The position numbers were made by a program, and so were the translations under genes. A stretch of DNA of 64,000 bases from Thermoplasmata archaeon (GTDB lineage: Archaea; Thermoplasmatota; Thermoplasmata; Lutacidiplasmatales; UBA184): positions 10,044-74,043 of the forward strand of contig JBEKEY010000001.1 of the NCBI GenBank assembly GCA_050013595.1. Direction: 5' to 3'. The notes beneath the pieces are model-generated. The model was not told the DNA's origin. It did not search any database and worked only from the letters and a program-made list of their open reading frames with translations. This document shows, in pieces, positions 1-29,766 of the stretch. Each line of letters begins with the position of its first letter. Position 1 is the first letter of the stretch.

Positions 1-121
1 GGCCGAGGAAGGCGAACAGGCGGCCCTTCTCGATGTCGAGGTCGACCCGGTCGAGCGCGCGGACCGGGCGCGGGCCTTTCCGGTAGGTCTTCGAAAGACC
101 CCGGGCCTCGAGGATCGCCAT
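1..121 (-). CDS. ABC transporter ATP-binding protein, N-terminal fragment (runs off window start)
   Basis: Minus-strand ATG at 121..119 opens a frame with no stop to the window edge. Translation MAILEARGLSKTYRKGPRPVRALDRVDLDIEKGRLFAFLG matches the canonical ABC ATPase N-terminus just before Walker A. Absent from the ORF track because it is open-ended. Confidence 0.55.
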   Translation of the reverse strand, partial: MAILEARGLSKTYRKGPRPVRALDRVDLDIEKGRLFAFLG

Positions 122-178
122 GGTCCCCCGCCGAGCCACGAGCCCCGAAAAGGCTGGCGGCGCAGCGGTGGGCGGTCC

Positions 179-1816
179 TCAGGCCGCTCGTGCGCCCGCG
201 AGGAGCGGCTCGAGGAGGCCGATGGGCGGACAACCGAGACCGAGGAGCGTGTCGTGGAAGGAACGTAGGTTCCCGTGGAACCGGCTCGCGAGGAGTCGGG
301 ACCGGGCGCCCAGGATCGCGAGCTTCCCGAGCGTGTAGCAGAAGTACTCGGGGTTGAACGTTCCTCGGATCGCTTCGCGTTCGGCCGGGAGCCGCTCCAT
401 GTATCCCTCCTTCTGGAAGAACTGCGTCCCCTCCTCGAGCGTCATTCTCGCGGTGTGGAGACCGATGGAGACGAGCAGCCGGCAATCGCGCAGGAGGGCG
501 TCGTGGATCTGGGCGACCTCCGCAAGCGGGCTCTCCCGGCCGAGGCCCTTCTCGATCGCAAGCTGCTCGGTGTAGTGGGCCCATCCCTCGATGAACGAGG
601 GAGAGAGGTAGACCTTCCGAGCGAGGCTGGCCGAGGACAATCGGAAGTGCAGGAACTGTAGGTAGTGTCCCGGGTACACTTCGTGGACCGTGACGTTCCG
701 CAGCATCGGTCGGTTGAGCGAGCGTAGCCATTGCTCCTGCTGTTTCTCGGTCCACTTCGGGTCGACCGGGGTCACGTAGTAGATCCCCTCGGGCGAGGAG
801 GCATCGAACGGTCCGGGAGGGTTCATGCTCGCGGTCGAGAGCGCGCGGCTCCAGACCGGCGTCTCCTCGACCCGACATCGGGCTTCCGCCGGTACGGTCG
901 CGAGGTCCTCGGCTTCCACGAACCGTCGCGTCTCCTCCACGTACGCGGTCGCGGTGGGGATCACCTCGGCCGCCGAGGGATGACCTAGGAAGAGTCGTTC
1001 GAGAATCTCCGGCACCGTGACGTTCTCCGCCCGCGCGATCTCCGCCAGGCGATGCTGGTTCCGAGCGAGGTCGGCCACGCCCGCCTGTCGGATCTCCTCG
1101 AACGGGGTCTCGACCCCTTCGCGAACGAACAGGAGTCGTTGGAAGCGCGCCGGGCCGAGGGCAAAGTCGGGGACCGCTCCGGGAACATGGTGCTCCCGGA
1201 GCCAGGCCAGGAACTCGGTGACAGCCGCCTCGGCGGGGATGCGGGCGGTCCGGACCGAGTCCTCGAGGTGCGACCGGGCGGCGAACTCCTCGGCCTCGGC
1301 AAAGTGGGCGGCCAGACCGCCCCCGATCGCGAGCGAAAGGTCGAGGAACGGCTTCGGCAAGGGCGCGCGCAAGCGTTCCCGACCGACCGAGAGGAGTCGG
1401 GGGACCTGCTCGAGCGCGCGGACGATCGCGCCCACCCGTCGGTCGACGGGGGCGTAGTCGCGGGAAAGATACGACGTGAGCGAGACGGCTCCGAGGTAGT
1501 TCATCGGGTTCCGCTCGAGGTCGGAGACCATGCGGATGTCGAAGAGCGGGCTCTCGAGCAGTAGGCTCAGGAGGAATCCGTCGGTCTTCCGCCCGGTCGG
1601 CAGCGACTCCCGAGGAACGCTGGCAAGTCGCTGGAGCAGGGCATCCGCACCCTCGACCCAACGTTCGGTCGCCGCCGTGGATAGGTCGGGAAGTCGGCCG
1701 TCGTACTCGTGCAGTCCGAGCCCTACCGCGTAGGAGGGCGAGAGCGCGAACACATGGTCGACGACACTTCGCTCGATCGCGTTGAACTCGGTGGCCGCGG
1801 TATCGGAAGAACTCAT
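179..1816 (-). CDS. DUF885-family protein (putative metallopeptidase-like, HEVYPGHYLQ motif)
   Basis: 556-aa ORF with HExxxGH-type motif and length typical of DUF885. Likely start is ATG at 1816 (MSSSDTAATEF); an alternative ATG lies at 1849. Confidence 0.65.
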   Translation of the reverse strand: MSSSDTAATEFNAIERSVVDHVFALSPSYAVGLGLHEYDGRLPDLSTAATERWVEGADALLQRLASVPRESLPTGRKTDGFLLSLLLESPLFDIRMVSDLERNPMNYLGAVSLTSYLSRDYAPVDRRVGAIVRALEQVPRLLSVGRERLRAPLPKPFLDLSLAIGGGLAAHFAEAEEFAARSHLEDSVRTARIPAEAAVTEFLAWLREHHVPGAVPDFALGPARFQRLLFVREGVETPFEEIRQAGVADLARNQHRLAEIARAENVTVPEILERLFLGHPSAAEVIPTATAYVEETRRFVEAEDLATVPAEARCRVEETPVWSRALSTASMNPPGPFDASSPEGIYYVTPVDPKWTEKQQEQWLRSLNRPMLRNVTVHEVYPGHYLQFLHFRLSSASLARKVYLSPSFIEGWAHYTEQLAIEKGLGRESPLAEVAQIHDALLRDCRLLVSIGLHTARMTLEEGTQFFQKEGYMERLPAEREAIRGTFNPEYFCYTLGKLAILGARSRLLASRFHGNLRSFHDTLLGLGCPPIGLLEPLLAGARAA

Positions 1817-1886
1817 GGTAGCGAAGGTCGGGGAACGGGTGAGGCTCAAAAGGTCACGGGCGAGAGTGCGGGTGGCGGGACTCGGC

Positions 1887-2192
1887 TCACTCGACCCAGG
1901 TCATGCGGCAGGTAGGGCAGGTGCGGCCCTCGAGAGGGGTTCCGCACACGAAGCATTTCGGAAGTCGGTCGGACGCGGGCGAGGCCGATACGCTCGGCTC
2001 GGCCGGACGGTCCGGGAGGGGCGGCGGTATCCGGGTCGGCTCGAGGGTCGTCGGTGTCGGGGCCGGCGCGACCACCGGCTCGGGGACACTCTCGGTCGGC
2101 GGCTCGGTGGGAGGGGGCGATTCGTCCGGGAGAGGCTCCTCGGTTCCCCCCTCGTCCTCCTTGTCCCGGCGAAAGCGTCGGAAGAGCGACAT
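1887..2192 (-). CDS. small Pro-rich protein with C-terminal zinc ribbon (CxxC-x9-CxxC)
   Basis: 101-aa ORF in an otherwise empty gap between divergent genes. It ends in CFVCGTPLEGRTCPTCRMTWVE. There is no homology anchor. Confidence 0.4.
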   Translation of the reverse strand: MSLFRRFRRDKEDEGGTEEPLPDESPPPTEPPTESVPEPVVAPAPTPTTLEPTRIPPPLPDRPAEPSVSASPASDRLPKCFVCGTPLEGRTCPTCRMTWVE

Positions 2193-2276
2193 CCGCCGGA
2201 GCGAGCCGAATTCCCTTCATTACACCACCGTTCGGCGAACCGCACACGTTTTTCGGTCGGACCGGTTCCCGCGTCC

Positions 2277-2741
2277 ATGACCCCGACTCCCTCCGAACGG
2301 CTTCGTGAGCTCGGCCTGGTCCTTCCCTCGCCGCCCAAGCCGGCCGGCACCTACACTCCCGTGGTGCGTGACGGGCCGCGGGCCTGGGTCTCGGGGCAGA
2401 TCGTGACCGAGGCCGGAAACGTCCTCCATCCGGGGCTCGTGGACCGGGACGTTTCGGTGGACGTCGCTCGGGAGCTCGCCCGCCGCGCGACGCTCCAGGC
2501 GCTCAGCGCCCTCGCGGCGGAACTGGGTTCGATCGACCACGTCCAGGGATTCCTCCGCGTGGCCGTCTTCGTGGCTTCCTCGCCGGGATTCGGTCGCCAG
2601 CACGAAGTGGCGAACGGCGCCACGGACCTTCTCGTCCAAATCTTCGGAGACGCGGGGCGACCGGCGCGAGCCGCAGTGGGCGTCGCCGGCCTACCGCTCA
2701 ACGCTCCCGTCGAGGTCGAGTTCTTGGCCAGGACGGTCTAG
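2277..2741 (+). CDS. ridA: RidA/YjgF-family enamine/imine deaminase-like protein
   Basis: 154 aa starting at ATG 2277 (MTPTPSERLRELG). YjgF-like pattern AGTYTPVVRDGPRAWVSGQIV...VEVEFLA. The longer listed ORF from 1782 is an upstream Arg-rich extension. Confidence 0.75.
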   Translation: MTPTPSERLRELGLVLPSPPKPAGTYTPVVRDGPRAWVSGQIVTEAGNVLHPGLVDRDVSVDVARELARRATLQALSALAAELGSIDHVQGFLRVAVFVASSPGFGRQHEVANGATDLLVQIFGDAGRPARAAVGVAGLPLNAPVEVEFLARTV

Positions 2742-2748
2742 ACCGCTC

Positions 2749-3405
2749 GTGAAGCCCGCTACCTGGGACGGGGTCTATCGCGACGGCCGTGACCTCTACA
2801 CCCGCAATCGGAACCCGGGAACGAAGGTCTACGGGGAACCGCTTTCGACGGTCGAGGGTGTCGAGTACCGCGAGTGGGACCCGTTCCGCTCGAAGGCGGC
2901 GGCCCTGCTCCTCAAGGGAGCGCCGGCGGACGTCCTCGGTCGACCTCGCACCGTGCTCTACCTCGGGGCCGCGCACGGCACGACCGCGAGCCACCTCTCG
3001 GACCTCTGGCCCGACGCGACGATCTTCGCGATCGAGAAGAGCCCGACGTCGTTCGCCCCGCTCCTCGCGCTCGCCCGGACGCGACCCGGCCTCGTCCCGA
3101 TCCTCGCTGATGCCCAGCTGCCCGAGCGTTACCAAGCGGACGTCGGGGCGGTCGACTTCCTCTACCAGGACGTTGCGCAGCGGAACCAGGCCGGCATCTT
3201 CGTCGAGAACGCTCGGGCGTGCCTCGCGCCGCGAGGGAACGGGGTCCTGATGCTCAAGGTTCGGTCGGTGACGCAACAACGTTCGACGGCGGCCGTCGTC
3301 CGGGAGGCCCGCGGCGCGATCGTCGCGGCCCACCTCGCGGTTACCTACGAGACGGCTCTCGCTCCCTTCTCGCGCGAGCACGTCGCGCTCGCGGTCTCGG
3401 CGTAG
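2749..3405 (+). CDS. flpA: fibrillarin-like rRNA/tRNA 2'-O-methyltransferase
   Basis: 218 aa with fibrillarin signatures (KVYGE...EYREWDPFRSKAAA, SAM-MTase fold motifs). This is an archaeal/eukaryotic marker. Confidence 0.9.
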   Translation: MKPATWDGVYRDGRDLYTRNRNPGTKVYGEPLSTVEGVEYREWDPFRSKAAALLLKGAPADVLGRPRTVLYLGAAHGTTASHLSDLWPDATIFAIEKSPTSFAPLLALARTRPGLVPILADAQLPERYQADVGAVDFLYQDVAQRNQAGIFVENARACLAPRGNGVLMLKVRSVTQQRSTAAVVREARGAIVAAHLAVTYETALAPFSREHVALAVSA

Positions 3406-3480
3406 CGGTCCACGTTCCATCCACCGCCGGGAACTGGCGCGAAAAGTATCCCCCTCCCCTCCTCGACCGCGGAGGGTTGT

Positions 3481-5745
3481 GTGACGGGATCGGGCGGCTC
3501 GCGAGCGGCACCCTTGCTTCCGCTCGCGGTGGATTCGATACTCCTGGCCGGGATGCTTTTCGCGACCGTCGCTCATTCGGGGGCTCCGGTCACCTCGACC
3601 TCGCTCGCGAACGCCGTCACGCATTCGTCGGTCGTCGCTTCGGGAGTGGACCTCGCCGTCGACCCACCCTCCTACTGGATGCGGAGCGGAACGAACGTCA
3701 CGCTCGAGGCCGTCTGGACCTCGGGCTCTCCGTTGTGTCGCGTCACTCCACTCTGGTATGGCTGGTCGGTGGATTCTGGCAACGCCACGGGATTCCTGAA
3801 CAACACGTCCGGCCCGTCCACGACGTTCATCGCGGATTCGTTCGACTCGGGAACGGTCCGAGCGGTGGCCCGGGCGGTGGCCGAGGTCGACTGCGGCGCG
3901 AACCAGACCGTGATCGACCGCACGAACGAGGCGAACCTCTCGGTCGTCGCACCGATATCGCTCTCCGGCATCGCGTTCGGTCCGAGCCCGCTCTTCCCCG
4001 GCGATTCGGGAAACCTCGACGGGACGATCGTTGGTGGCGACCCCCCCTACCGGTTGGACGTTTCCTGGGGCGATGGAACTCGCTCGCAGCTGCAACTTCC
4101 GGGCCCGGGCCCATTCTCGGCGAGCCACCAGTACCCGGCCGGCGAGTTCGTTCCTTCGGTTTCCGCAGGGGATGCGGACAGCGACCTTGTCAACGCATCC
4201 GTGGAAGAGACCGTTTCGGTCGGGAACGGTCTCGAGGTGGGAATTCTGCCGGCCCGCATCGGGGCCGAGGTCGGAGTCCCACTTCAGTTCACGGGCGTGG
4301 CCGAGGGTCCTTCGCAAGACCTGACCCCGCTGGTCGATTGTTCGAATGCCACCTTAGGCTCGGCCGAAACGACCGCGAACGCGACGGTGTTCTCCTGCAC
4401 GTTCACGTCACCGGGAACGGCGGAGGTCCTCTTCGGGGAGTTTTCCCATCGCCCCGGAGGACCATCGGCGAGCGTCGTTCTCTATGAGCCGGTGGTCGAC
4501 CCACCCACCGTGTCGATCGAACCCGTGGATTCGACCGCGGAGGCGGGTGGCGCGGACCCGATGCGGGTCGGTGTGTCGGGAGGCGTCATGCCGATCTCAC
4601 TCTCCTGGAACCTTTCCGGGAATCTCTCGAGCGGCCAGACGACCCTCTGGTCCGACGGGGACGGCGTCATCTCGCTCTCACTCCCGACGGCGGGCGATTA
4701 CGCAGTCGGGGTTCAGGCGAGCGATGCTCTCGGAGGCACCGACGCGAACGGAACGGGGGACTTACGAGTGGACGCGCCACTGAAGGCCAACGCCACCGGC
4801 GCGAGTATGCTCCTCACGGACGGCGCGTACGCCGAGGTCGGCGTCGACGCGCTTTCCGGGTGCCCGCCGTTCTCCTGGTGGGTAGTTCCCGACCTTCCTC
4901 CGTCCACCGGATCGGCCGGGGCCGGCGTCCTCGCGACCGTCGGTCAGTTCACCTGGAACGGGTCGTACGCCATCGAGGGCAATCTCACGTTCACGGCCGG
5001 GGTGACCGACGAATGCGGGGCCGCCTGGCAGACGGAATTCGAGATTTCGCTCGTCCCCAGACTGTCCGCCCTCGCAAGTGTGAAACCGGCGCCTTCTTCG
5101 TCCAACGAGACACTCGCAGTGAACCTGTCGATCCAGGGTGGCTTGCCACCCTATCGAGTTTCCGCGAATGCGAGCGACGGGGAATCCTGGAATCGGACCC
5201 TCCTTTCGGATGGCGCCTACGAATGGTTGCTCGCAACGGACGGGAACGGGTCCTTGCTGGTGGTCATTTCGGTAGCGGATTCTCTGGGCGACGTCGTAGC
5301 CACCAATCTCTCGGTGATTCTCGTTTCTCCGGTGCATCCAACCACACCCTCTCCTCCCGCAGAGCCTCCCCCGCCGTCGACCACCCCGGGCTCTCCGACT
5401 AACTCGTCGGACCCTTCACTGACCGACTCGAGCTGCATTCCGATCGCCGTGTTCTTGTTCGCAGTCGCTGCGGTAAGCGTGGTAGTGATCGGGTGGCGTC
5501 GGAGAACCCGAAACGGCTCTCGGGATGGGCCCGGGCCCGACCCGGTGGCGACACTTCGACGAATTATCGAACCGGCCGAGGGCGCGGAGCGATTCACCGT
5601 CGAACTCCTTGCGGAGGAAGCGGGGATTCCAATCACGGAAGTGCGCTCGACCATTGATCGATTGATCTCCGAAAGGAGGATTCGCTCCGAAAGCGGCGCT
5701 GACGGAGAGGAGGTGCTCTCGTGGTCGTCCGAAGCTGGTTCATAG
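3481..5745 (+). CDS. secreted PKD-repeat surface glycoprotein with C-terminal TM anchor and short cytoplasmic winged-helix-like tail
   Basis: GTG start followed by a signal peptide. A PKD signature is present (VSWGDGTRSQ...HQYPAGEF). There are dozens of N-x-S/T sequons and a Pro/Thr linker. The TM segment is IPIAVFLFAVAAVSVVVIGW, then an RRR stop-transfer. The cytoplasmic tail FTVELLAEEAGIPITEVRSTIDRLISERRIR resembles a wHTH. Confidence 0.75.
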   Translation: MTGSGGSRAAPLLPLAVDSILLAGMLFATVAHSGAPVTSTSLANAVTHSSVVASGVDLAVDPPSYWMRSGTNVTLEAVWTSGSPLCRVTPLWYGWSVDSGNATGFLNNTSGPSTTFIADSFDSGTVRAVARAVAEVDCGANQTVIDRTNEANLSVVAPISLSGIAFGPSPLFPGDSGNLDGTIVGGDPPYRLDVSWGDGTRSQLQLPGPGPFSASHQYPAGEFVPSVSAGDADSDLVNASVEETVSVGNGLEVGILPARIGAEVGVPLQFTGVAEGPSQDLTPLVDCSNATLGSAETTANATVFSCTFTSPGTAEVLFGEFSHRPGGPSASVVLYEPVVDPPTVSIEPVDSTAEAGGADPMRVGVSGGVMPISLSWNLSGNLSSGQTTLWSDGDGVISLSLPTAGDYAVGVQASDALGGTDANGTGDLRVDAPLKANATGASMLLTDGAYAEVGVDALSGCPPFSWWVVPDLPPSTGSAGAGVLATVGQFTWNGSYAIEGNLTFTAGVTDECGAAWQTEFEISLVPRLSALASVKPAPSSSNETLAVNLSIQGGLPPYRVSANASDGESWNRTLLSDGAYEWLLATDGNGSLLVVISVADSLGDVVATNLSVILVSPVHPTTPSPPAEPPPPSTTPGSPTNSSDPSLTDSSCIPIAVFLFAVAAVSVVVIGWRRRTRNGSRDGPGPDPVATLRRIIEPAEGAERFTVELLAEEAGIPITEVRSTIDRLISERRIRSESGADGEEVLSWSSEAGS

Positions 5746-6128
5746 TGGGCGGTCCTGGAATCCCGTCCGGTGGACACCGTGCTGTCGCCTTGCTCCTGGT
5801 CGCCCTGTCGGCCATCCCGATGCCGGGGATTCATGCCACGCTCCATCCGGCCGAGGTCACTCAGACTTTCTCCGCGACCCCTTCCACGCCCGTTAGCAAT
5901 TTTACGGCGTCGATCGATCGATTGGTCGACTTGGTGGCTTTTGCCGGTAGCGGAATCCTATCGCTCGTCTGGGCCCGGGTCGCGTTAAGCTGGTTTTCGA
6001 ACGATATCACGAAGAAGATCCAGGCTAAGGACCGCGCCCGGGACGCTCTCGTCGGTACGTTGCTGTTCATGGCAGCGGTCACCGGCCTCCTCTACGGGCT
6101 CGCCCATTGGGTTCTGACGGGCAGTTAG
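5721..6128 (+). CDS. small 2-TM pilin-like membrane protein (TrbC/VirB2-like or CedA1-like)
   Basis: Signal peptide (AVALLLVALSAIPMPGIHA) followed by two hydrophobic helices, the TrbC/VirB2 topology. Start is GTG 5721, or GTG 5745 overlapping the upstream stop. It is coupled to the following genes. Confidence 0.55.
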   Translation: MVVRSWFIVGGPGIPSGGHRAVALLLVALSAIPMPGIHATLHPAEVTQTFSATPSTPVSNFTASIDRLVDLVAFAGSGILSLVWARVALSWFSNDITKKIQAKDRARDALVGTLLFMAAVTGLLYGLAHWVLTGS

Positions 6129-6136
6129 AGGGACCC

Positions 6137-7270
6137 ATGCCGATTCCCTCCCTTGATCTGGGTGACCTCGTCCGGGCGATCCTGTTCGCGATCTTTGGGG
6201 ATCTCACCGCGGTCATCACGGCCATCATTGGACCAACGTACGACAATATTCTCGTCCCCGAGCTCCAGACCGGTGCGCTCTTTCCTTCTCTCTTCGGCCC
6301 GGGAACTGGAGGGGTGACCTATCTTTCCACGGCCGCGCGGTTCTCGGATTTCATCCTCTCGAATGTCGTGGATCCGGCAGTCGCCCTCGTCGCTCTCGGA
6401 GTCGCGATTCTCTACCTGTCTCGATCGGTCGTTACCCGGTGGGCGGACGGATTGGACGCACTCCTCCCTCGTCTGGTCCTCGGGGTTGTCGGGGCGAACT
6501 TCACCGTCCCGATCGCGGGTGCCATCCTGGGGGTAGCCGGAGGCCTTTACCCGGTGGTATCCGGCTGGGACGGAGGAACCTGGCAGCACTGGGTGAATCT
6601 CGCTGGCTGGGGACAGGTCGCGTTTTCGTGGGACAATGGGGCGCTCGCGTTCGTGCTATCGTTGGTCGAGTTCGCCGCCGTGTTCGCCCTCTTGCTTGCG
6701 GTGGGTATCCGGGACGCAGTTCTGGCGGTGTTGCTCGTCCTCCTGCCGATCTTCACCCTGTTGTGGCCGCTCCGCCCACTCTCCCCGCTGGCTCGGAGAG
6801 GATGGCTCCTCTTCGCCGAACTAGCGTTCCTGCCGTGCGTGCTCGTCATCCCTCTCGAACTCGCCGTCGCGAGCCCCAGTCCCGTCATGCTGGTCTCCTA
6901 CCTCGCCGTCGCGGTGGCCTCGCCGTTCTTCCTCTCGTTGGCCGGCACCAACCTGGTCTCCTTCGGTTTCGGCGGCGCGTCGAACGTCGTCCATTCTAAC
7001 GTCCAACGCGGGCTCGCGGTCGCCCCCTCCGCTGCCACGTCCTCGTTGGGACCTGTGGCGAACGGGGCTCGGTCGAGCGGTGCTGCCGGCCGCGCGCTCG
7101 CGGGAACGGCACGGGTCGCCGGATCAGCGGCGGCGCCGGCGGCCGCCCCGCTCGCCGTCGGTGAGTTGCTTGGCCAGGGAGCCTGGCATCTCATCGGGCA
7201 CCTCCGTCCCTCGTCAGAGAAGAACGGTCCCGGGGGTCAACCGCCCCTACGCAACGGAGGGTCGAAATGA
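6137..7270 (+). CDS. polytopic membrane protein, VirB6/TrbL/CedA-like
   Basis: About 377 aa with 6 or more predicted TM helices and a hydrophilic Ala/Gly/Ser-rich C-terminal tail. It lies between the pilin-like gene and the VirB4-like ATPase. ATG 6137 sits immediately after the upstream stop. Confidence 0.55.
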   Translation: MPIPSLDLGDLVRAILFAIFGDLTAVITAIIGPTYDNILVPELQTGALFPSLFGPGTGGVTYLSTAARFSDFILSNVVDPAVALVALGVAILYLSRSVVTRWADGLDALLPRLVLGVVGANFTVPIAGAILGVAGGLYPVVSGWDGGTWQHWVNLAGWGQVAFSWDNGALAFVLSLVEFAAVFALLLAVGIRDAVLAVLLVLLPIFTLLWPLRPLSPLARRGWLLFAELAFLPCVLVIPLELAVASPSPVMLVSYLAVAVASPFFLSLAGTNLVSFGFGGASNVVHSNVQRGLAVAPSAATSSLGPVANGARSSGAAGRALAGTARVAGSAAAPAAAPLAVGELLGQGAWHLIGHLRPSSEKNGPGGQPPLRNGGSK

Positions 7271-7271
7271 C

Positions 7272-8054
7272 ATGGCCGAACCCGAGGCCGGATCTCCTGT
7301 CATCGTGCTACCCGAACGGCTGGGCCGTCGAATGCGACTCGGACCGTTTCCGTCGTCCCGCGACGCCCTCAAGTTTGTCATCTACGCCGCCACCGGGGCC
7401 CTCTTGGCGTCGTTCACGAGCCCATGGTTGTGGCTACCGTTCGTACTGGTCGGATTCGCGGTCTCGGTCTGGCGCCCGGAGGGACGAGCGGTCGACGAGC
7501 GTCTCCTCGTCTTCGCAGTCTGGAGACTCCGGTCCTGGGGTCTAGGGAAGGCCGTGAAGAGCGCGAACTCCCGCCCGCTCGTTCGACAGGGACTCCTGCA
7601 GCTCGCGTCCCACCGATACGTGGCGGTCGTTCGTACCGGGGGTTCGCCGATGGCCTACCTGCCGCCGGACGAGTTGGCCCGACGCTTCGAACTCTATCGC
7701 GAATTGATTCGGTCCACGGAGGGAGGGTTCTCGTTGCTATCGACCGTGGTGCCGATCCGCTCCCAAACGGTTAGGCCCTCGACGACTCCGGGAGAGGGGC
7801 CCGAGGCGTCCGCCCGTGCAGGGTATTCCGAGCTGGTCCTCTTACTCTGCCGACGTCGGCTCCTGCGCCGGGTCTACTTCGTCCTCGGAGCTGTCGGAGC
7901 CAGCACGGACTCCGTCGCCTTACTCGAAGGACGGGTCGCGAGCTTGGTCGAGCGGCTGAGTTCTCTCGGCCTCCGACCGACACGACTTCGGGATCGTGCC
8001 CTGGCCGAAGCGGCCCACCGCTTTGGATGGGCGGCAGAGGTGACCCGCCAGTGA
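7272..8054 (+). CDS. membrane-anchored protein (2 N-terminal TM helices + cytoplasmic domain), possible VirB3/VirB4-N-domain-like component
   Basis: ATG 7272 lies 1 nt after the upstream stop. TM pair KFVIYAATGALLASF / WLWLPFVLVGFAVSVW followed by a 180-aa soluble domain. The stop overlaps the next start. Confidence 0.5.
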   Translation: MAEPEAGSPVIVLPERLGRRMRLGPFPSSRDALKFVIYAATGALLASFTSPWLWLPFVLVGFAVSVWRPEGRAVDERLLVFAVWRLRSWGLGKAVKSANSRPLVRQGLLQLASHRYVAVVRTGGSPMAYLPPDELARRFELYRELIRSTEGGFSLLSTVVPIRSQTVRPSTTPGEGPEASARAGYSELVLLLCRRRLLRRVYFVLGAVGASTDSVALLEGRVASLVERLSSLGLRPTRLRDRALAEAAHRFGWAAEVTRQ

Positions 8055-8425
8055 AAGACGATGTCAGGGTTACGCCCATCTTCGAGTTCGAGGCGTTCGG
8101 TGCGGCCGTCGGGTCGGCGGTTGTCTGCGGGGCACTTTCCTTGATCGTCCCGCTCCTCATTGCCCCTACGGCTACCCTTGTTTGCCTCGCACTCGCGGGA
8201 TGGGTTTCGACCAGCCGACGGCGAGGGCCACTCACCCTTAGCGGCCTCGGCAATTCCTCCCTCGCTGCACTCTGCGTTCTCGGCGGGTCCGCCGCAGGAT
8301 TCCTGACGGCTCCGTCGTTCCTGGCACCGTTCCGGGGCCTCCTCCTTGCAGGAGGATTGGTCCCCCTCTTCCTGGCCGAACGAACTCGCTCGATTCACCC
8401 CCTGCCGGTGTTCACCCGTTCATGA
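8051..8425 (+). CDS. small multi-TM membrane protein
   Basis: GTG 8051 overlaps the upstream TGA (GTGA). Hydrophobic segments run throughout. The stop overlaps the ATPase start (ATGA at 8422). Confidence 0.5.
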   Translation: MKDDVRVTPIFEFEAFGAAVGSAVVCGALSLIVPLLIAPTATLVCLALAGWVSTSRRRGPLTLSGLGNSSLAALCVLGGSAAGFLTAPSFLAPFRGLLLAGGLVPLFLAERTRSIHPLPVFTRS

Positions 8426-10116
8426 CGGCACCGACAAGCCCCCCGGCTCCGGTCGAGGCTCCTACGTGGTGGCGAGTCGGACGAAGCTACCGCGCTCCGC
8501 TCTTCATCCGACAGTTTCCGCCGGAAGTCCCCTTCGGGTTCCTCGGTCGGATCTTGCCGACGAGCGAGACCCTGGAGCTGTCGGTCGAGGCTCACCGGAT
8601 CCCTTCTTCGAACGCCCTCGAAATGCTGCACGGGGCGCGAGCCGTCGCGGAGGCGGAGCTCGCCAGCGGCGGGAACGGGGGACAGACCGCTGAGCTCGAG
8701 GTCGAGCGTGCAAGCGCGGAGGACTTAGGTCATGCCATCGCCCGGCGAACTCAGGAGCTATGGAAGGTGGGTATCCGCTTCGTTGCCTTGGGTCCCACTC
8801 GACCCCACGTCGAGGCGAAGAGGACGCGGCTTTCCGAGCGACTCTCGGCCATCGGATTCCGGTTGCGGATACCTCGGTACGAGGTTCGAGAAGCGCTTCT
8901 CCCGGCGGATCTCTCTGCGTCCGAACCCCGCCCCGACGGGTACTGGCATACGTTGCCCACCGACGGACTCGCCGCCCTCTTCCCGTTCGGGGACGAGACG
9001 CTCTTGGAATCCGGAGGCGTTCTGCTCGGACTCGCGCTTTCCGACGCGAGCCCGGTGTTCGTCGATCGGTGGTCGCACGCGAGCCACTCCTGGGGGATCT
9101 TCGGGACCACGGGTGCCGGCAAATCGTTCGCCGCGGCGTTGACCCTCCTACGGACTCGCTGGCAACGACCCGAAGTGTCGATCGCCATCCTGGACCCGCT
9201 CGGGGAGTATTCCGCCCTAGTCGAGGCCCTGGGAGGCTCTGTCATCCGAGTCGCGGACGGGGCCGGCGGCCGGCTCAACCCGCTCGATCCCGTGACCACC
9301 CGTGGGGATCGACGGGAGAAAGCGGCACGGGTCGGAACGATGCTACGCGCCCTCTTTCCGAGCCTTCGCGACGAGGAGGCGGCCGAACTGGATGCGGCCG
9401 TGACACAGCTCTACGACCGGGGTCCCGAGGTGCCGACCTTTCGTGACCTACGAGAAAGGGTGGTCCAACGGACCGGGGCGTCGACTCGACTATCCACCTT
9501 GCTCGAGGTGTTCCAATCGGGCTCCCTCAGGGCTCTCGACGGATTGACGACCGCCCGACCCACCGAGAGGGTCGTATCGGTCGATTTCGAAGGGGTCCCC
9601 GATGACCAGTTGCCGTTCCACCTCACCTACGTCCTCGATTGGGCCTACGGACGACTCGCCGACCGCCAGGGCGGAAAGCTGCTCTTGATCGACGAGGCAC
9701 ACCTTCTCGCGCGCCACGCAGCCACCGAAGAGTTCCTCGACCGTGTCGTGCGCCACGTTCGACACTTCGAGGCAGGTCTGCTGATCCTATCTCAGAGCCC
9801 GGAGGACTTCCTGGTTCGCCCGGCCGGTCGGTCCCTTCTGAGGAATCTATACGCTACCGGGTTCCTGCGTCTGCCCGAAGTATCCTCGGAGGCTCGTGCG
9901 TTCTTTGCCCTCACGGGCGCGGAAGCCGAATGGCTCCCTCGGGCCCGTCTTCCGCGGGAGACCGGCTACTCCGAATCGCTCTGGCGCTTCGGGGAACTTC
10001 ATCTTCCGCTTGCCATCGTCGCGTCGACCCCCGAGTACGAATTCCTCGGAGCGACATTGGGCCGTCACCGAGCGGCCGCAGACGAATTGAGTGCCGCTCC
10101 AAAGCGAGGTTTATAG
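8422..10116 (+). CDS. VirB4/TrbE/CagE/CedB-family transfer ATPase
   Basis: 564 aa. Walker A is GIFGTTGAGKSFAA and Walker B is KLLLIDEAHLLA. Overall layout resembles VirB4-like ATPases. It is translationally coupled to the upstream membrane genes. Confidence 0.85.
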   Translation: MTAPTSPPAPVEAPTWWRVGRSYRAPLFIRQFPPEVPFGFLGRILPTSETLELSVEAHRIPSSNALEMLHGARAVAEAELASGGNGGQTAELEVERASAEDLGHAIARRTQELWKVGIRFVALGPTRPHVEAKRTRLSERLSAIGFRLRIPRYEVREALLPADLSASEPRPDGYWHTLPTDGLAALFPFGDETLLESGGVLLGLALSDASPVFVDRWSHASHSWGIFGTTGAGKSFAAALTLLRTRWQRPEVSIAILDPLGEYSALVEALGGSVIRVADGAGGRLNPLDPVTTRGDRREKAARVGTMLRALFPSLRDEEAAELDAAVTQLYDRGPEVPTFRDLRERVVQRTGASTRLSTLLEVFQSGSLRALDGLTTARPTERVVSVDFEGVPDDQLPFHLTYVLDWAYGRLADRQGGKLLLIDEAHLLARHAATEEFLDRVVRHVRHFEAGLLILSQSPEDFLVRPAGRSLLRNLYATGFLRLPEVSSEARAFFALTGAEAEWLPRARLPRETGYSESLWRFGELHLPLAIVASTPEYEFLGATLGRHRAAADELSAAPKRGL

Positions 10117-10140
10117 GGGCCTGAGAGCCGGACGAGGGAC

Positions 10141-10638
10141 GTGGGCGCGGAGGCGACAGCTGATGGTCCGCCCCGCCGCCGAACGAGCTGGAGCCTGAAG
10201 ACGATCGTCGAGGACGTCGCCGGTCGACCGATCGGCGAGCTTCAGGACCCCGCACGACCGGTTCATCCGTATCTCAAGGGCAGGGACATTGGAATTCGGG
10301 GCGAATCGCCCGCTCCCCCACGGCCGTTGGTTGAGGCGTACGACCCGGTCGATCATCTGTATCCTCCCCTAATCGGCTCGGCCGCCCGCGCATTCCACGG
10401 ACCGGATCACGAGAACCACGCCGAAACCCTCGACCGGCACCGTCCACTCCCCGGCCACATTCCGGGGCCATCCCACCGACCGGAGCGGCTCTACCTGCAT
10501 TACTTGCTGCTGCACATGGACCGGTTGAGCGGGTCGGCGCTACGCTATCTCAAGCTCGCCGTCGACGAGGAACTCGCCCACCGCGCCGAGCCCCCGCCCT
10601 TGCCCTCCGAGAGCTCACATTCCAAGCCACCCTCCTGA
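10141..10638 (+). CDS. hypothetical protein (weak)
   Basis: 165-aa ORF with high GC3 and no recognisable domain. Alternative antisense ORFs exist, so the strand call is uncertain. Confidence 0.25.
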   Translation: MGAEATADGPPRRRTSWSLKTIVEDVAGRPIGELQDPARPVHPYLKGRDIGIRGESPAPPRPLVEAYDPVDHLYPPLIGSAARAFHGPDHENHAETLDRHRPLPGHIPGPSHRPERLYLHYLLLHMDRLSGSALRYLKLAVDEELAHRAEPPPLPSESSHSKPPS

Positions 10639-10725
10639 ACCCCTGCGCCCCATCGGGATGTCCCCCTTCGACGGCTGAACGGACTGCTCGGAAGAGCCCC
10701 ACTTTTCGGTTTGGCCCGTCGTCGA

Positions 10726-10747
10726 AAACTTACGCCGGCGTAAGTTT
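10726..10747. promoter_or_regulatory. perfect 22-bp palindrome AAACTTACGCCGGCGTAAGTTT overlapping a TATA-like box (TTTAATAG), putative TA operator/promoter
   Basis: Seen directly in sequence. It lies 40 bp upstream of the MNT start in a local AT-rich patch. Confidence 0.6.
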
Positions 10748-10786
10748 AATAGGCGTCCCGCCTGTGAATCTGAACAGAACACCACC

Positions 10787-11224
10787 ATGCAGCATGTCAC
10801 GATCCCCCGAATTCACTGCTACCGTTGCGTCTACACGTGGACGCCGGTCAAGACGCCGGTCCGCATGTGCCCCCGTTGCAAGTCGACGTTGTGGGACGTT
10901 CCCAAGATCCGACCCGTGAAGTTCGGGGACGGTCTCGGAATCGAGGAGATTCTCACGCCCCACCTCGACGAGATCCGGCGGCTCGCGAGGAAGCACGGCG
11001 CGGAGCGAATCATGGTGTTCGGGTCGGTGCGCCGGCGAGAAGCTACCGAGAAGAGCGATGTCGACCTGATGGTCCGATGGAAGCGGCCGGTATCTTTGCT
11101 CGACCGTGCCGGGCTCCGGACCGATCTCGAGAAGGCCCTAGGCCGTTCCGTGGACCTCGTTAACGAGGGAGGGCTTCACTGGGCAATCCAACCGCAAATC
11201 GAGGCGGAGGCGGTGTTACTCTGA
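10787..11224 (+). CDS. mntA: minimal nucleotidyltransferase (MNT) with N-terminal zinc ribbon, putative antitoxin/AMPylase of HEPN-MNT module
   Basis: N-terminal CYRC...CPRC pair. Carries the GS-x(n)-DxD motif (GSVRRREATEKSDVDLMV) of the pol-beta NTase superfamily. Confidence 0.8.
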   Translation: MQHVTIPRIHCYRCVYTWTPVKTPVRMCPRCKSTLWDVPKIRPVKFGDGLGIEEILTPHLDEIRRLARKHGAERIMVFGSVRRREATEKSDVDLMVRWKRPVSLLDRAGLRTDLEKALGRSVDLVNEGGLHWAIQPQIEAEAVLL

Positions 11225-11253
11225 AAGACAGTGAGCATCGGGATCGCTTTCTC

Positions 11254-11574
11254 GTGGATGAGATGCTCCGCCATCTGGAGGTCCTTGCCTCCGTCGTCCG
11301 CAATGGGAAGGCCGCCCTGAGCTCGGACGCCCTGAATCGGTATGCCGGGGAACACGCTACGGAGTTGCTCGCCGAGGCCGCAGAGAAGACCAGTCACGCA
11401 TTCAAGACCGCCAATCCAGGGATGCCCTGGGACCGACTTCACCCGCTCCGTCACGACGTCGCGCACCCGTACGACCTCGGCGCGGAACCGGTTAACATCA
11501 ACCAACTTTGGGTGTTCGCGACGAAGGACGCCCCGCGGATTTCCCGACGTCTTAGGGACGCCAGGTTCCCATAG
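11254..11574 (+). CDS. hepT: HepT/DUF86 HEPN-domain toxin-like protein
   Basis: R-x4-H-x-Y motif (LRHDVAHPY) in the expected C-terminal position. It lies 30 bp downstream of the MNT gene. GTG start as reported by the ORF track. Confidence 0.75.
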   Translation: MDEMLRHLEVLASVVRNGKAALSSDALNRYAGEHATELLAEAAEKTSHAFKTANPGMPWDRLHPLRHDVAHPYDLGAEPVNINQLWVFATKDAPRISRRLRDARFP

Positions 11575-11610: not shown

Positions 11611-12438
11611 CTAGCCGATTCTACGACAGCGCCGGGCCCGAGCGCTCGACTCGAGGGCACGGTAGGCCCCGGCGTCCCATTCGACACCGATCGCGTTCCG
11701 GCCCGAACGGGTCGCCGCCCAGAGGGTGGTACCGGTTCCGGCAAACGGATCGAGGACCGTGTCTCCCAGAACCGAGAACATCCGGATTAGGCGTTCGGCC
11801 AGCTCGGGCGGAAAGGCGCCGCTCCGTCCGCCGGGGGAGTCCTGCCGTGCCCCCCGGATGTCGGTCCAGACCTGGCTGAACCAGCGGTCCCGCTCCGTGC
11901 GGGAGAACCGGCTTTCGAGGCGGGTCTTGTCATGGGTCGGGAACCGTCGGAGTTTCCCCTTCCGGAAGAGTAGGATGAACTCGCAATCGAGCGTGACGTA
12001 GGCGTTGGGCGGAAGGAACCCCGACCCGAGGAACGCGTTGGGGCGGTTGGTCGGTTTCTTCCAGAGAATGTAAGGAAGGGGGATGAGTCCGAGGCGCGCA
12101 ACGGATACGAGCGTCTCCGACGGGTTGGGCCAGAGTCGAAACTCCCCGCCCGCCGAGCGGAGAGCGTCGCCAATATTGATTGCCAGGATTCCGCCGTCCA
12201 CGAGGACACGCTGGCACTCGGTCCAGGCGTCGGTAAGGATCCGCAACATCCCGTCGTAGTCGGTCGCTCCCAGGGATCGAAAGAGCCCGTCCCACTGCGG
12301 GATCATCGGGTACGGAGGCGAAGTCACCACCAGATGGACCGATTCGCTCGCGATCCCGTCCAGCCGGCGCGCGTCGCCGTGGAGCAGCCGAACGGACCCC
12401 CGGGTCGGGTGCCGCACGGCGGACCGATGCCCTGGCAC
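11611..12438 (-). CDS. DNA methyltransferase (beta-class N4-cytosine or N6-adenine), orphan
   Basis: Motif IV SPPY (VVTSPPYPM) precedes motif I DPFAGTGTT, which is the beta-class order. The likely start is GTG 12438 (alternatives up to 12480). The remainder of the listed 692-aa ORF is antisense to the HPS gene. Confidence 0.8.
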   Translation of the reverse strand: MPGHRSAVRHPTRGSVRLLHGDARRLDGIASESVHLVVTSPPYPMIPQWDGLFRSLGATDYDGMLRILTDAWTECQRVLVDGGILAINIGDALRSAGGEFRLWPNPSETLVSVARLGLIPLPYILWKKPTNRPNAFLGSGFLPPNAYVTLDCEFILLFRKGKLRRFPTHDKTRLESRFSRTERDRWFSQVWTDIRGARQDSPGGRSGAFPPELAERLIRMFSVLGDTVLDPFAGTGTTLWAATRSGRNAIGVEWDAGAYRALESSARARRCRRIG

Positions 12439-12468
12439 GATTAATACGGCCCGCCCTCTCGTCGGGTC

Positions 12469-13773
12469 ATGCGGCTCGACCGACCGGTCCTCCAGGTCGC
12501 GCTCGACTTCGAGAACCTCTCCCGTGCCCTCCTCGCGGCGCGCGAGGCGGTCGAAGGGGGAGCGGACTGGGTCGAGGCGGGAACCCCCCTCATCAAGAGC
12601 GAGGGCCTGGACGCCGTCCGCGAGCTCAAGAAGAACTTCCCTACCCACCGGATCGTGGCCGACCTCAAGGTGATGGACACCGGCGCGTTCGAGGTCGAGA
12701 TCGCCGCGAAGGCGGGAGCCGATATCGTCACGGTCCTGGGGGCCGCGGATGACGACACGATCGCCGAAGCGGTCCGGGGCGGGGAACTGTACGGCGCCGA
12801 GATCATGGTCGACCTCCTCGGGGTTGCCGACCCGGTAGCACGTACGAAGCGGGCCGCCGAGTTGGGCGCGGCCGCGGTCTGCTGGCACGTCGGGATCGAC
12901 ATGCAGATGGCCGGCAAGACGCCTTTCGCTGTACTTGGCGAGCTCGCGAAGTCCTCGCCGATCCCGGTCGCGGTGGCCGGGGGCCTCACGAGCGAGACGG
13001 TCGCAGAGGCCGTCCGCTCGGGCGCTCGAATCCTCATCGTGGGAGGAGCGATCACGAAGAGCCCGAAGATGGTGGAAGCGACCCAGCGCATCTGCGAGGC
13101 CATCCGGACCCAAAAGGAGGTCGCCTCCGAGCATTTCCGACGGTACAGCGGCGAGGACCTCCGTGTCGCTTTCCTGAAGGTCTCGAGTCCGAACGTTACG
13201 GATGCGATGATGCGGCAGGGAGCGATGCACGGTCTTCTTCCCCACCTCAAGAACCCGACCGTACGAATGGTCGGTCCGGCCGTGACCGTGGTCACCCGCG
13301 ACGGGGACTGGGCGAAGCCCGTCGAGGCGATCGACCGAGCCGGTCCCGGCGATGTCATCGTGGTCGATGCGGGGGGCGCGACGACCGCCGTCTGGGGCGA
13401 GCTCGCGAGCTGGTCGGCGCACGGTCGTCAGATCGCTGGCGTCGTTGTCGACGGAGCAGTACGCGACCTCGATACGATCCTCGACATGGGCTTCCCGGCG
13501 TTCAGCCGGTCGGTGAGCCCGAACGCCGGCGAACCGAAGGGTCACGGGGAGATCGGCGTGGAAGTGACGGTCGGGGGCCAGCGGGTCCGTCCGGGGGACT
13601 GGATCGTGGGAGATGTGAGCGGTGTGGTGGTGGTTCCCCGTGAGCGGGCACAGGAGATCGCGAACCGCGCTCTCGACGTACTCGAGCACGAGAATCGGGT
13701 TCGCGAGGAGATCCAGCGAGGCTCGACTCTCAGCGCCGTTCAGAAGCTCGAACGTTGGGAACGGGTCGGGTAG
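12469..13773 (+). CDS. hxlA: 3-hexulose-6-phosphate synthase fused to RraA/MenG-like (class II aldolase-like) domain
   Basis: N-terminal ~210 aa are HPS/OMPDC-fold (PVLQVALDF...VAGGLT). C-terminal ~220 aa are RraA-like (GDVIVVDAGG...VVVDGAVRD). Confidence 0.85.
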   Translation: MRLDRPVLQVALDFENLSRALLAAREAVEGGADWVEAGTPLIKSEGLDAVRELKKNFPTHRIVADLKVMDTGAFEVEIAAKAGADIVTVLGAADDDTIAEAVRGGELYGAEIMVDLLGVADPVARTKRAAELGAAAVCWHVGIDMQMAGKTPFAVLGELAKSSPIPVAVAGGLTSETVAEAVRSGARILIVGGAITKSPKMVEATQRICEAIRTQKEVASEHFRRYSGEDLRVAFLKVSSPNVTDAMMRQGAMHGLLPHLKNPTVRMVGPAVTVVTRDGDWAKPVEAIDRAGPGDVIVVDAGGATTAVWGELASWSAHGRQIAGVVVDGAVRDLDTILDMGFPAFSRSVSPNAGEPKGHGEIGVEVTVGGQRVRPGDWIVGDVSGVVVVPRERAQEIANRALDVLEHENRVREEIQRGSTLSAVQKLERWERVG

Positions 13774-13805
13774 CTATCGGTTGTTGGCCCCGAGAGGGAC
13801 CCCCC

Positions 13806-14603
13806 CTAGGGTGCGTTCAACGCCTTCAGGACCTGGGACTGGGCCCAGAGAGAGTTCTCCCGTGAACGAGTTCTCGCCTGCTGGTGCCGGTGGGGTCCCT
13901 CCCATTTCAGGGTCCAGGAGAACGGATACTCGACTTCCCAGAGCACGAGGCCCTCGGCCTCCGCCATGGGCAACGCCAGGCGGGTTTGGCCCTTCAGTGC
14001 CGCCTCGAGCTTTGCGAGGGTCACACGTCCGTCATCATATTCTCGGAGCGCCGCGACGATCTTGCGGACCATCCCCCACACGAACGAGGGGGCGCGAATC
14101 TCCACTACGAGACCGGCGTCCGCCGCGATGACGGTGACCGATTCCACCGACCTTACGGCGGGCGTTCCTGCCGGAAGACCGCGCCCGAAGGACCGGACGT
14201 CGATCGGCCCCGAGAAGAGTCGAGCCGCCCGCTCCCACCGTTTGGGATCGTGCGCTCCCAGGGGTTCGAAGTAGCGATAGGTCCGTCGCAAGGCCCGTCG
14301 CACTCGAAACTCCTCCGCGACCGGGGTCGCGGCCGAGAAGGTCAGTTCTGTGGAGATGCCGTTGAGGGAGCGCAGTAGGACATCGCTCGCCAACTCCGTC
14401 GACAGCACCAGAGCGTTCGCTCGCGCGCTCACCCCTCGGTCGGTCCGGCTGGCTACCGCGAGACCCGCTGCTTCGGCGGTCGGAACCACCCCGACTCGGA
14501 CCAAGCCGCGAAGAAGCTCGCCTTCGACGGTCCGGAGCCCGGGTTGGCGGGCCCAACCGGCGAACGGACGGCCGTCGTAGCCGAATCGAACGAGCCAGCG
14601 CAT
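13806..14603 (-). CDS. truA: tRNA pseudouridine(38-40) synthase
   Basis: RTDRGVSA catalytic motif and TruA-like length and architecture. Confidence 0.85.
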   Translation of the reverse strand: MRWLVRFGYDGRPFAGWARQPGLRTVEGELLRGLVRVGVVPTAEAAGLAVASRTDRGVSARANALVLSTELASDVLLRSLNGISTELTFSAATPVAEEFRVRRALRRTYRYFEPLGAHDPKRWERAARLFSGPIDVRSFGRGLPAGTPAVRSVESVTVIAADAGLVVEIRAPSFVWGMVRKIVAALREYDDGRVTLAKLEAALKGQTRLALPMAEAEGLVLWEVEYPFSWTLKWEGPHRHQQARTRSRENSLWAQSQVLKALNAP

Positions 14604-19602: not shown

Positions 19603-19611
19603 GGCGGGATT

Positions 19612-19686
19612 GCTCCCGTAGTCTAGTCCGGTCAAGGATTCGGGGCCTTCGACCCCGTAACGCGGGTTCGAATCCCGCCGGGAGCA
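19612..19686 (+). tRNA. tRNA-Glu (anticodon UUC, inferred)
   Basis: Hand-folded cloverleaf. Acceptor stem GCTCCCG/CGGGAGC, D-arm, anticodon stem CGGGG/CCCCG with loop CCTTCGA, T-arm GCGGG-TTCGAAT-CCCGC, discriminator A. No encoded CCA. Position 33 is C rather than U, which is unusual. Confidence 0.7.
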
Positions 19687-19778
19687 TCCCGATCTCACCG
19701 ACGATCGCCCGTCGTGCCCCACGGACAGGGGCGCCTCGAACGAGTTTGATTCTCGGTCGGTAGGAACGCGAGGACTCC

Positions 19779-29626: not shown

Positions 29627-29766
29627 GGTCTTGACCCGCGGGGCGGAGTCCGGCCCTGATAAAGAGGGTGCGGGCGGGGGCCCGCTCGGGCCGGTTTCGA
29701 CCCCCCATGGCATACCTTATCAAGGGGGGAGCGGGTTCGGCGCCCGGTCGTTCTGAGGTCTCCTCC

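Follow-up and report, generated by a model that had tools for sequence, protein, structure and literature searches.

A chromosome-fixed, minimal conjugation-type type IV secretion operon of Thermoplasmata archaea with a possible role in DNA exchange

The operon and its seven genes

The stretch of DNA analysed here (the window; 64 kb of contig JBEKEY010000001.1, G+C approximately 66%) derives from an uncultured Thermoplasmata archaeon and carries, on the + strand at 3481-10638, an operon of seven genes, designated Surf and g1 to g6, that resembles a minimal conjugation-type type IV secretion system (T4SS). The closest match to its ATPase, at 97% identity, lies on a 1.07-Mb contig of the metagenome-assembled genome (MAG) MFD09222.bin.2.162, and UBA184 and UBA61 are among the relatives. 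An initial annotation of the sequence had proposed five consecutive + strand genes; with coordinates set from the gene calls of orthologous contigs and from junction sequences, all five open reading frames were found to exist at somewhat refined positions, and Surf and g6 were added at the two ends. Both are counted in the unit because they co-occur with the core genes in distant versions of the operon.

Surf (3481-5745, GTG start) encodes a 754-residue surface protein that is a candidate adhesin or cell-contact component. Its 3' end overlaps g1 by 25 nt and contains a strong Shine-Dalgarno sequence, GGAGAGGAGGTG, preceding the g1 GTG start at 5721. The product of g1 (5721-6128) is a 135-residue pilin precursor of the VirB2/T4SS_pilin type, and g2 (6137-7270), with an ATG start that matches the ortholog gene calls, encodes a 377-residue TrbL/VirB6-family membrane protein. 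The 260-residue product of g3 (7272-8054) combines a VirB3/PrgI hairpin with the first part of a VirB4 N-domain; the 564-residue product of g5 (8422-10116) is a VirB4-family ATPase having the second part of that N-domain and the RecA-like motor. Between them, g4 (8051-8425, GTG start) encodes a small membrane protein of 124 residues with three to four hydrophobic helices. It shares 4 nt with each neighbour, GTGA with g3 and ATGA with g5, and is translationally coupled on both sides. The overlaps first described at three junctions thus hold for these two, whereas g2 and g3 are separated by a single nucleotide (TGAcATG). The conserved, soluble accessory protein g6 (10141-10638; 165 residues) begins 24 nt past g5.

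In approximately 45 species-level Thermoplasmata MAGs the locus has an invariant order, running from DUF885 (- strand), RidA and fibrillarin genes through Surf and g1-g6 to an N6_N4 DNA methyltransferase gene (- strand), a pyrF-like gene, truA (- strand) and pstS. Identity of the ATPase ranges from 54 to 97% across these syntenic genomes, which include a complete 2.18-Mb chromosome (locus L021) and contigs of 1-2.3 Mb. OY970259.1, CAVYTM01, CAVTJV01 and CAWEHV01 are complete or near-complete MAGs with the operon. Four pairwise comparisons gave dN/dS values of 0.05-0.33 across all seven genes; listed singly, the ranges are 0.28-0.33 for Surf, 0.09-0.38 for g4 and 0.10-0.22 for g6. Such values reflect purifying selection and show that all seven genes are real and selected; together with the retained gene order, they place the operon beyond chance.

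Pilin, membrane proteins and a divided VirB4

The ATPase encoded by g5 had been recognized from its sequence as VirB4-type, and both of the motifs on which that rested were located, Walker A (GTTGAGKS) spanning residues 228-235 (nt 9103-9126) and Walker B (LLLIDEAH) spanning residues 420-427 (nt 9679-9702). The best NCBIfam match was to the conju_CD1110 VirB4-like model (2.1e-41), with residues 17-475 aligned to positions 204-684 of the 752 in the profile, and further matches were to VirB4_plasma (3.3e-28), TraC (3.3e-13) and VirB4_CagE (1.4e-12). All VirB4 scores fall under the equivalog cut-offs, so g5 is a divergent member of the family. The closest relative in the PDB was the VirB4 C-terminal domain structure 4AG5 (1.5e-13), with a helicase, 9x1l, at 0.002. 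In Pfam, the top match was DUF87 ("HerA central domain"), accompanied by AAA_10 and P-loop_TraG, and the NCBIfam HerA models gave local matches only, at 2.8e-4 and 8.5e-3. An ortholog search returned 491 matches, the best 120 of which have 67-97% identity.

Because the CD1110 alignment begins at profile position 204, the first 200 or so residues of a normal VirB4 are absent from g5, and it is in g3 that their counterpart was found. The initial annotation listed the products of g3 and g4 as two further membrane proteins, a description that stands for g4; g3 is instead one half of a split VirB4, consisting of a VirB3/PrgI-like N-terminal motif and transmembrane (TM) hairpin (residues ~10-67), then a soluble domain whose homology is with the N-terminal ~170-280 residues of a complete VirB4. 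A hidden Markov model (HMM) built from 33 g3 orthologs covers residues 1-290 of VirB4 homologs of 800-950 residues (P0137, at 56 bits, and P0145, P0141 and P0167), g5 matches residues ~320-850 of the same proteins, and since the two cover successive parts of the same full-length homologs, g3 and g5 together are read as a split VirB3::VirB4. The same HMM scored 40-56 bits at the N-terminal ends of proteins in which VirB3 and VirB4 are fused; in VirB4 proteins of 700-770 residues the match is to the soluble part alone, at residues ~10-190. Individual g3 orthologs matched Pfam PrgI in 6 of 33 cases, NCBIfam SCO6880_fam in 10 of 33 (6.6e-5) and VirB4_plasma in one of 33 (2.8e-6). In profile-profile comparison by hhalign, g3 aligned over its full length (246 columns; 87.6%, E 3.5e-6) with a "PrgI family protein" of Embleya that itself matches Pfam PrgI at 1.3e-17, and also with a haloarchaeal plasmid family (89.5%, E 2e-6) and with its counterpart at the distant locus L062 (96.3%, E 1.5e-9). 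The g3 profile found no match among PDB sequences.

The initial annotation also held g2 to be a polytopic VirB6-like protein with a hydrophilic tail, and this was borne out. The protein has approximately seven helices and a C-terminal tail of about 100 Ala/Gly-rich, hydrophilic residues, and the profile of its orthologs aligned by hhalign with Pfam TrbL_3 proteins of loci L060 (97.1%, E 5.3e-11, 236 columns) and L061 (90.9%, E 1.1e-6), and with a 425-residue g2-like protein of L062 (98.8%, E 4.5e-17). Negative controls, in which g2 was aligned with unrelated polytopic proteins, gave E values of 0.1-0.2 over at most 27 columns. A g2 HMM matched the proteins of L060, L061 and L062 and one Saccharibacteria protein. 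Direct scans of g2 against Pfam and NCBIfam were negative, and precomputed TrbL_3 flags on some of its orthologs were not reproduced with the local copy of Pfam, the profile-profile tests being used in their place. The g2 protein is presumed to be the channel or the platform for pilus assembly.

For g1, the proposed signal peptide and two-TM, VirB2-like topology was likewise found: a signal-peptide-like helix is followed by two long hydrophobic helices, and ortholog alignments showed a variable signal peptide joined to a nearly invariant mature helix-loop-helix of ~75 residues. The mature part carries a conserved N60-F-T sequon and a basic loop, SWFSNDxTKKxQAKDRARD, and in an AlphaFold2 model the helices span residues 57-96 and 101-133 with a confidence score (pLDDT) of about 80. 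In hhalign, g1 aligned with an L062 protein that Pfam annotates as T4SS_pilin (98.7%, E 3.3e-16; 72 columns, 38% identity); Pfam T4SS_pilin matches in 8 of 28 orthologs were sub-threshold (best 0.0015), and a direct Pfam/NCBIfam scan of g1 returned nothing significant. Neither the g1 nor the g2 profile retrieved pilin or VirB6 chains among PDB sequences, and hhalign comparisons of the two with small-protein and TrbL_3 families of haloarchaeal plasmids (E 0.008-0.05) fell inside the range of the negative controls and were not counted.

Surf has a hydrophobic signal or anchor at its N-terminus. An Ig/PKD-like ectodomain follows, then a TM helix at residues ~645-675 and, on the cytoplasmic side, a winged-helix domain at residues ~690-750 (nt ~5548-5730). 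Its ectodomain has a weak PKD match and matches the Ig-like module of PamR at 1.2e-10, and it carries 23 N-x-S/T sequons where 5.0 +- 2.0 are expected. The ectodomain is evolving fast (26-91% identity, against 54-97% for the ATPase), and the cytoplasmic tail is the best-conserved part of the protein. Among 26 orthologs, this tail matched the winged helix-turn-helix families DUF5817_CT in 22 (3e-6) and Rrf2 in 21, with other matches to GntR, TrmB and MarR. The same layout of ectodomain, TM helix and winged helix precedes the pilin gene at L062 and at L050 and L051, where the proteins are PKD proteins of 1790 residues. Assignment of Surf to the Pam pilus of candidate phyla radiation (CPR) bacteria was considered and rejected, the PamR match being to a single Ig-like module and reaching 41 bits where the cut-off is 300 (bioRxiv 10.64898/2026.03.03.709456).

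Small multi-TM genes occupy the g4 position, between the two VirB4 halves in the window, at L050, L051, L062 and L063, and an uncalled open reading frame does so at L052; g4 has no Pfam or NCBIfam family match and no HMM match across lineages. g6 has a conserved N-terminal motif, RRRxSWSLKTIVEDVAGRPI, and a conserved C-terminal one, PERLYLHYLLLHMDRLS, with a Pro-rich linker. It found no match in Pfam, NCBIfam or the PDB, and an HMM made from its close orthologs alone detected homologs two genes 3' of the ATPase at L050 and L051 (56 bits, E ~1e-16).

Chromosomal setting, distant versions and mobile relatives

The initial annotation reported no VirD4 coupling ATPase, relaxase or integrase, and none was found in the 64-kb window, in which positions 1-20 kb were covered through annotated orthologous loci and 19.8-61 kb through 20 large open reading frames, all of them metabolic or transport genes. 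Nor was a coupling protein (T4CP), relaxase or integrase present within 10 kb on either side in those syntenic loci for which gene calls were listed. No standout att-like direct repeats flank the operon, no relatives of it were found on IMG/VR contigs, and tRNA genes lie more than 9 kb away.

Distant versions retain the core gene order at other chromosomal sites, again among housekeeping genes, with ATPase identities of 38-39% in genomes of 67-71% G+C and of 27% in genomes of 30% G+C. At L062 (ATPase identity 31%, G+C 43%) the order is also kept, and the operon lies near a gene for a DNA methylase and a weak match to an integrase, which make its chromosomal status doubtful. The T4SS_pilin gene of L062 is followed, within 2374-6126, by genes for three proteins of 326-406 residues whose C-terminal ~70 residues match the g1 HMM at 25-60 bits; these may be tip or minor pilins that bear a large head outside the cell. 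In the GC-poor (30%) loci L052 and L063, a gene that begins 24 nt past the VirB4 gene encodes an MGMT-type DNA-binding domain fused to endonuclease V (11668-12570 and 10668-11570, respectively), and an Ogg glycosylase gene lies 2 kb further on (13630-14247 and 12630-13247). This arrangement, seen in one lineage only, is a possible link to DNA repair.

Among bacteria, a Candidatus Saccharibacteria contig (L049) has consecutive genes at 114-8175 that match g2 (24 bits), g3 (24 bits) and g5 (23% identity), and because these chromosomal T4SS genes match the three profiles, the operon is tied to the CPR class of T4SS. Mobile relatives were found at L060 and L061, on haloarchaeal plasmids and on a linear plasmid of Embleya, each comprising TrbL, a VirB3-VirB4 pair that may be fused (as it is at L060 and L061) and a T4CP-like ATPase. 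The gene for the last comes directly after VirB4, often with relaxase- or primase-like genes.

Several features surround the operon in the window itself. The intergenic region upstream of Surf (3406-3480, + strand) contains, as read from the sequence, an A/T-rich element, GAAAAGTAT, at 3441-3449, which is a candidate archaeal TATA box and B recognition element about 30 nt 5' of the GTG start. A scan for sigma-70 promoters and terminators, which does not apply to archaea, returned nothing. Between g6 and the methylase gene lie genes for an MntA-type nucleotidyltransferase antitoxin (10787-11224, + strand; NCBIfam 6e-11) and a HepT-like RNase toxin (11254-11574, + strand; Pfam 2.7e-5), a type VII toxin-antitoxin pair that occurs only in the window and in its 97% relative (L004) and is a recent insertion. 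The N6_N4 DNA methyltransferase gene (11611 to ~12510, - strand; Pfam 2.2e-34) is convergent with g6 and adjacent to the operon in all of the approximately 45 syntenic genomes; the adjacency is not kept in distant versions, and no partner restriction enzyme was seen. Extension of its open reading frame to 13689 is a spurious artefact of high G+C.

Further downstream, a tRNA-Glu gene at 19611-19689 was found by both ARAGORN and Rfam, and a tRNA-Leu(CAG) gene of 85 nt at 44884-44968 by ARAGORN and not by the Rfam scan at gathering threshold. Genes for the metabolism of amino acids and amines, unrelated to the operon, are densely packed from 19779 to 43805. Pfam matches there identify three class-III aminotransferases, one aldehyde dehydrogenase and one amidohydrolase; a fourth aminotransferase (36444-38081), two more aldehyde dehydrogenases (26640-28124 and 28133-29713) and a second amidohydrolase (24161-25030) were recognized by translation alone. 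An Opp-type ABC transporter, a saccharopine dehydrogenase-like gene and a glutamine synthetase gene complete the block.

Interpretation and relation to known systems

The reading that we favour, by a modest degree, is of a chromosome-fixed, or domesticated, minimal conjugation-type T4SS of the UBA184/UBA61-like lineage that most likely exchanges chromosomal DNA. The two parts of this reading differ in strength: the structural and evolutionary identity of the operon is held with high confidence, whereas service in DNA exchange, which is proposed by analogy, stands at about even chances. The system is called domesticated because it is passed on vertically at a site flanked by housekeeping genes, shows purifying selection and has no coupling protein, relaxase or integrase. 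These observations support a T4SS that was captured by its host, lost the coupling and relaxase functions and became vertically inherited, which is the sense in which the term has been applied to Ced and Ted (PMC9905601). Judged by sequence, its parts belong to the monoderm/archaeal MPF-FATA-like conjugation class and not to the Ced family.

In the mechanism proposed, the g1 pilin would be exported by Sec, trimmed, and probably N-glycosylated at the conserved NFT; it would then be pulled from the membrane and polymerized on the g2 platform, probably with lipid. Energy would come from a hexamer of VirB4, for which g3, and perhaps also g4, would serve as membrane tether. The heavily glycosylated, fast-evolving Surf could mediate recognition of other cells or surfaces, with its winged helix relaying contact to DNA or to the ATPase on the cytoplasmic side. 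The assembled machine might exchange host chromosomal DNA between cells in the manner of Ced and Ted, either as importer or as exporter, and service to the host is most likely because no element-specific module for substrate selection (T4CP/relaxase) is present. The winged helix of Surf, the methylase gene convergent with g6, and the MGMT-endonuclease V and Ogg genes beside the operon at L052 and L063 are weak hints of a link to DNA. A bolder version, that this is an ancient, vertically inherited DNA-exchange machine of the Thermoplasmatota, domesticated from an archaeal conjugative element independently of Ced and Ted and having the Surf winged helix, g6 and the g4-split VirB4 in place of coupling protein and relaxase, is less likely than not. 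Should it hold, conjugation-like exchange of chromosomal DNA would be a widespread trait among mesophilic archaea and not an adaptation of hyperthermophiles.

A number of points weigh against DNA exchange by a domesticated T4SS. The DNA substrate is suggested only by analogy; winged helices can also serve in regulation or in binding other proteins, and the DNA-repair and methylase genes nearby, which are lineage-specific, may be there by coincidence. In Patescibacteria, chromosomal T4SS of this class are suspected to serve an epibiotic lifestyle and not DNA transfer (PMC12102498), and no HerA, Rad50 or ParA gene lies beside the operon, unlike many Ted loci (PMC9905601). Structural modelling lent little to the assignments, since fold searches with the g1 hairpin model were non-specific and the g2 AlphaFold model reached a pLDDT of 51 on a shallow alignment (63-97% identity). 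G+C at third codon positions (GC3) is 0.70-0.77 in the operon and 0.83-0.88 in the fibrillarin, pyrF-like and pst genes, a depression that fits an old foreign origin and could equally reflect low expression.

Of the other explanations, the one to be taken most seriously, though we think it unlikely, gives the same apparatus a role without DNA, as an adhesion or contact pilus or in delivery of protein during attachment, biofilm formation or encounters with partner cells. Patescibacteria provide a precedent (PMC12102498), the operon has no T4CP, relaxase or recombination genes, its first gene encodes a large, fast-evolving, glycosylated Ig/PKD-like surface protein, and L062 has the three extra tip- or minor-pilin-like proteins. 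However, the sole chromosomal archaeal T4SS derivatives to have been studied experimentally, those of Ced, move DNA (PMC9905601, PMC11868833), and the winged-helix tail of Surf and the DNA-modifying and repair neighbours lean in the same direction. No archaeal system composed only of VirB4, VirB6 and VirB2 is known to have a secreted-protein substrate. True conjugation, with export of chromosomal or episomal DNA by means of a coupling protein and a relaxase whose genes lie at other places in the genome, appears improbable. In Cuniculiplasma, a TraG/TraD/VirD4-family gene does reside at a locus apart from the VirB4 cluster (PMC5155288), and the closest mobile relatives of the operon all pair VirB4 with a T4CP; no T4CP was found in the approximately 45 syntenic loci (+-10 kb) or in the 64-kb window, however, these being the parts of the genomes that the search covered.

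Two further explanations were rejected. That the operon is a resident or decaying integrated conjugative element would accord with the homology of its components to parts of such elements, with its GC3 being under that of its neighbours and with the adjoining toxin-antitoxin pair. Against this, the operon occupies one position between housekeeping genes in approximately 45 species whose ATPases diverge to 54% identity, every gene is under purifying selection, integrase, att repeats and IMG/VR relatives were not found, tRNA genes are distant, and the toxin-antitoxin pair, confined to the window and one 97% relative, is recent; the probability left to an element is very small. Smaller still is that of a HerA/FtsK-type DNA pump accompanied by unrelated membrane proteins, to which the top Pfam match to DUF87, the weak HerA score and the PDB helicase would point. 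VirB4 models matched nearly the whole of g5 at 1e-41 to 1e-12, ahead of HerA by many orders of magnitude (2.1e-41 against 2.8e-4 for the best of each), the PDB relative is a VirB4, and the neighbouring membrane proteins matched TrbL, PrgI and T4SS_pilin families, a result opposite to the one that the initial annotation had named as telling against itself.

If the reading as a domesticated T4SS is true, a selected, chromosome-fixed T4SS in Thermoplasmata of mesophilic soil and peat, with its relatives in low-GC and other lineages, would mean that archaea have repeatedly captured conjugation hardware for use by the host. Ced and Ted have so far been described only in hyperthermophilic Crenarchaeota and read as adaptations to extreme heat. 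The operon also offers a concrete set of genes (pilin, VirB6, split VirB3::VirB4, g4, g6 and a winged-helix adhesin) with which DNA exchange could be tested in uncultured archaea. The VirB3 homolog g3 contradicts the stated absence of VirB3 from archaeal systems (PMC11868833), and the natural division of VirB4 could inform how the VirB4 N-domain docks at the membrane.

With regard to previous descriptions, the system had been thought uncharacterized. VirB4 clusters of Thermoplasmatales were in fact noted in passing in 2016 (PMC5155288), and NCBI calls some orthologs "VirB4 family"; beyond this, no paper analysing the system was found. The "type IV secretion components" cluster of the cultured relative Cuniculiplasma (in C. 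divulgatum, CSP5_1185-1189), comprising arCOG05340, the VirB4 arCOG04034, arCOG05369 and a membrane protein restricted to Thermoplasmatales (PMC5155288), is probably of the same kind as the operon. Compared by description, it shares a chromosomal VirB4 with multipass and small membrane proteins; it was listed in a genome description, without assignment of components, pilin, split VirB4, adhesin or evolutionary analysis.

In sequence, the closest relatives of g2, g3 and g5 are modules of the MPF-FATA type, as found on haloarchaeal plasmids (e.g., pMHR1-2), at L060 and L061, and on the Embleya linear plasmid. The order of genes is the same, a small two-TM protein followed by TrbL/VirB6, a VirB3-like protein and VirB4, but these modules reside on plasmids or islands and include genes for a T4CP-like ATPase and for relaxase- or primase-like proteins; their VirB4 is usually undivided or joined to VirB3. 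The relaxase-less chromosomal T4SS of Patescibacteria/CPR are alike in VirB4 class, in pilins of the T4SS_pilin type and in having PrgI/VirB3 beside VirB4. They differ in being bacterial, with 23% ATPase identity and an unsplit VirB4, and neither VirB3-VirB4 fusions nor a surface protein with a winged-helix tail has been described for them (PMC12102498).

The likeness to Ced and Ted that the initial annotation proposed holds for gene organization, whereas the sequences place the operon in the MPF-FATA-type class. Both of those systems arose by domestication of a T4SS and bring DNA into the cell (PMC9905601). Ced, of Sulfolobales and Desulfurococcales (CedA, CedA1, CedA2, CedB, CedD/CedE; PMC9905601, PMC11868833), likewise combines pilin, channel and ATPase, and its VirB4 N-domain is also spread over two polypeptides, CedB and CedD each having part, conceptually as in g3 and g5. 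CedB and CedD, however, are of HerA-like clades and both have an ATPase domain, whereas g3 has none and g5 is of the VirB4 clade; the CedA1 pilin is unprocessed, and the Ced genes are dispersed, induced by ultraviolet light and act together with the Ups type IV pili. The only Ced-family match was a local one on the P-loop region of g5 (NCBIfam CedD, residues 409-461, 40.9 bits against a cut-off of 600); g1 and g2 gave no Ced-family match at E<=0.1 in libraries whose inclusion of CedA and CedA1 models was not established.

The layout of g1, g2 and g5 is most like that of Ted, a resemblance of architecture that is judged from the published description of that system in Thermoproteales (TedC pilin, VirB6-like TedA and VirB4 TedB; Beltran et al. 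2023, PMC9905601). Both are chromosomal and without T4CP or relaxase, both have the gene for a pilin with cleavable signal peptide directly 5' of that for a VirB6-like protein of ~7 TM helices, both use an ATPase of the VirB4 clade, and each is kept across an archaeal order. The operon differs in occurring in Thermoplasmatota, in MAGs from mesophilic soil and peat, in having all genes in a single tight operon, and in its split VirB4, its VirB3/PrgI, its Surf with winged-helix tail and the additional g4 and g6. In summary, the operon belongs to an already known category, that of domesticated archaeal T4SS, and not to a new one; what is specific to this variant is the VirB3 homolog, the split VirB4, the adhesin with its winged-helix tail, and g6.

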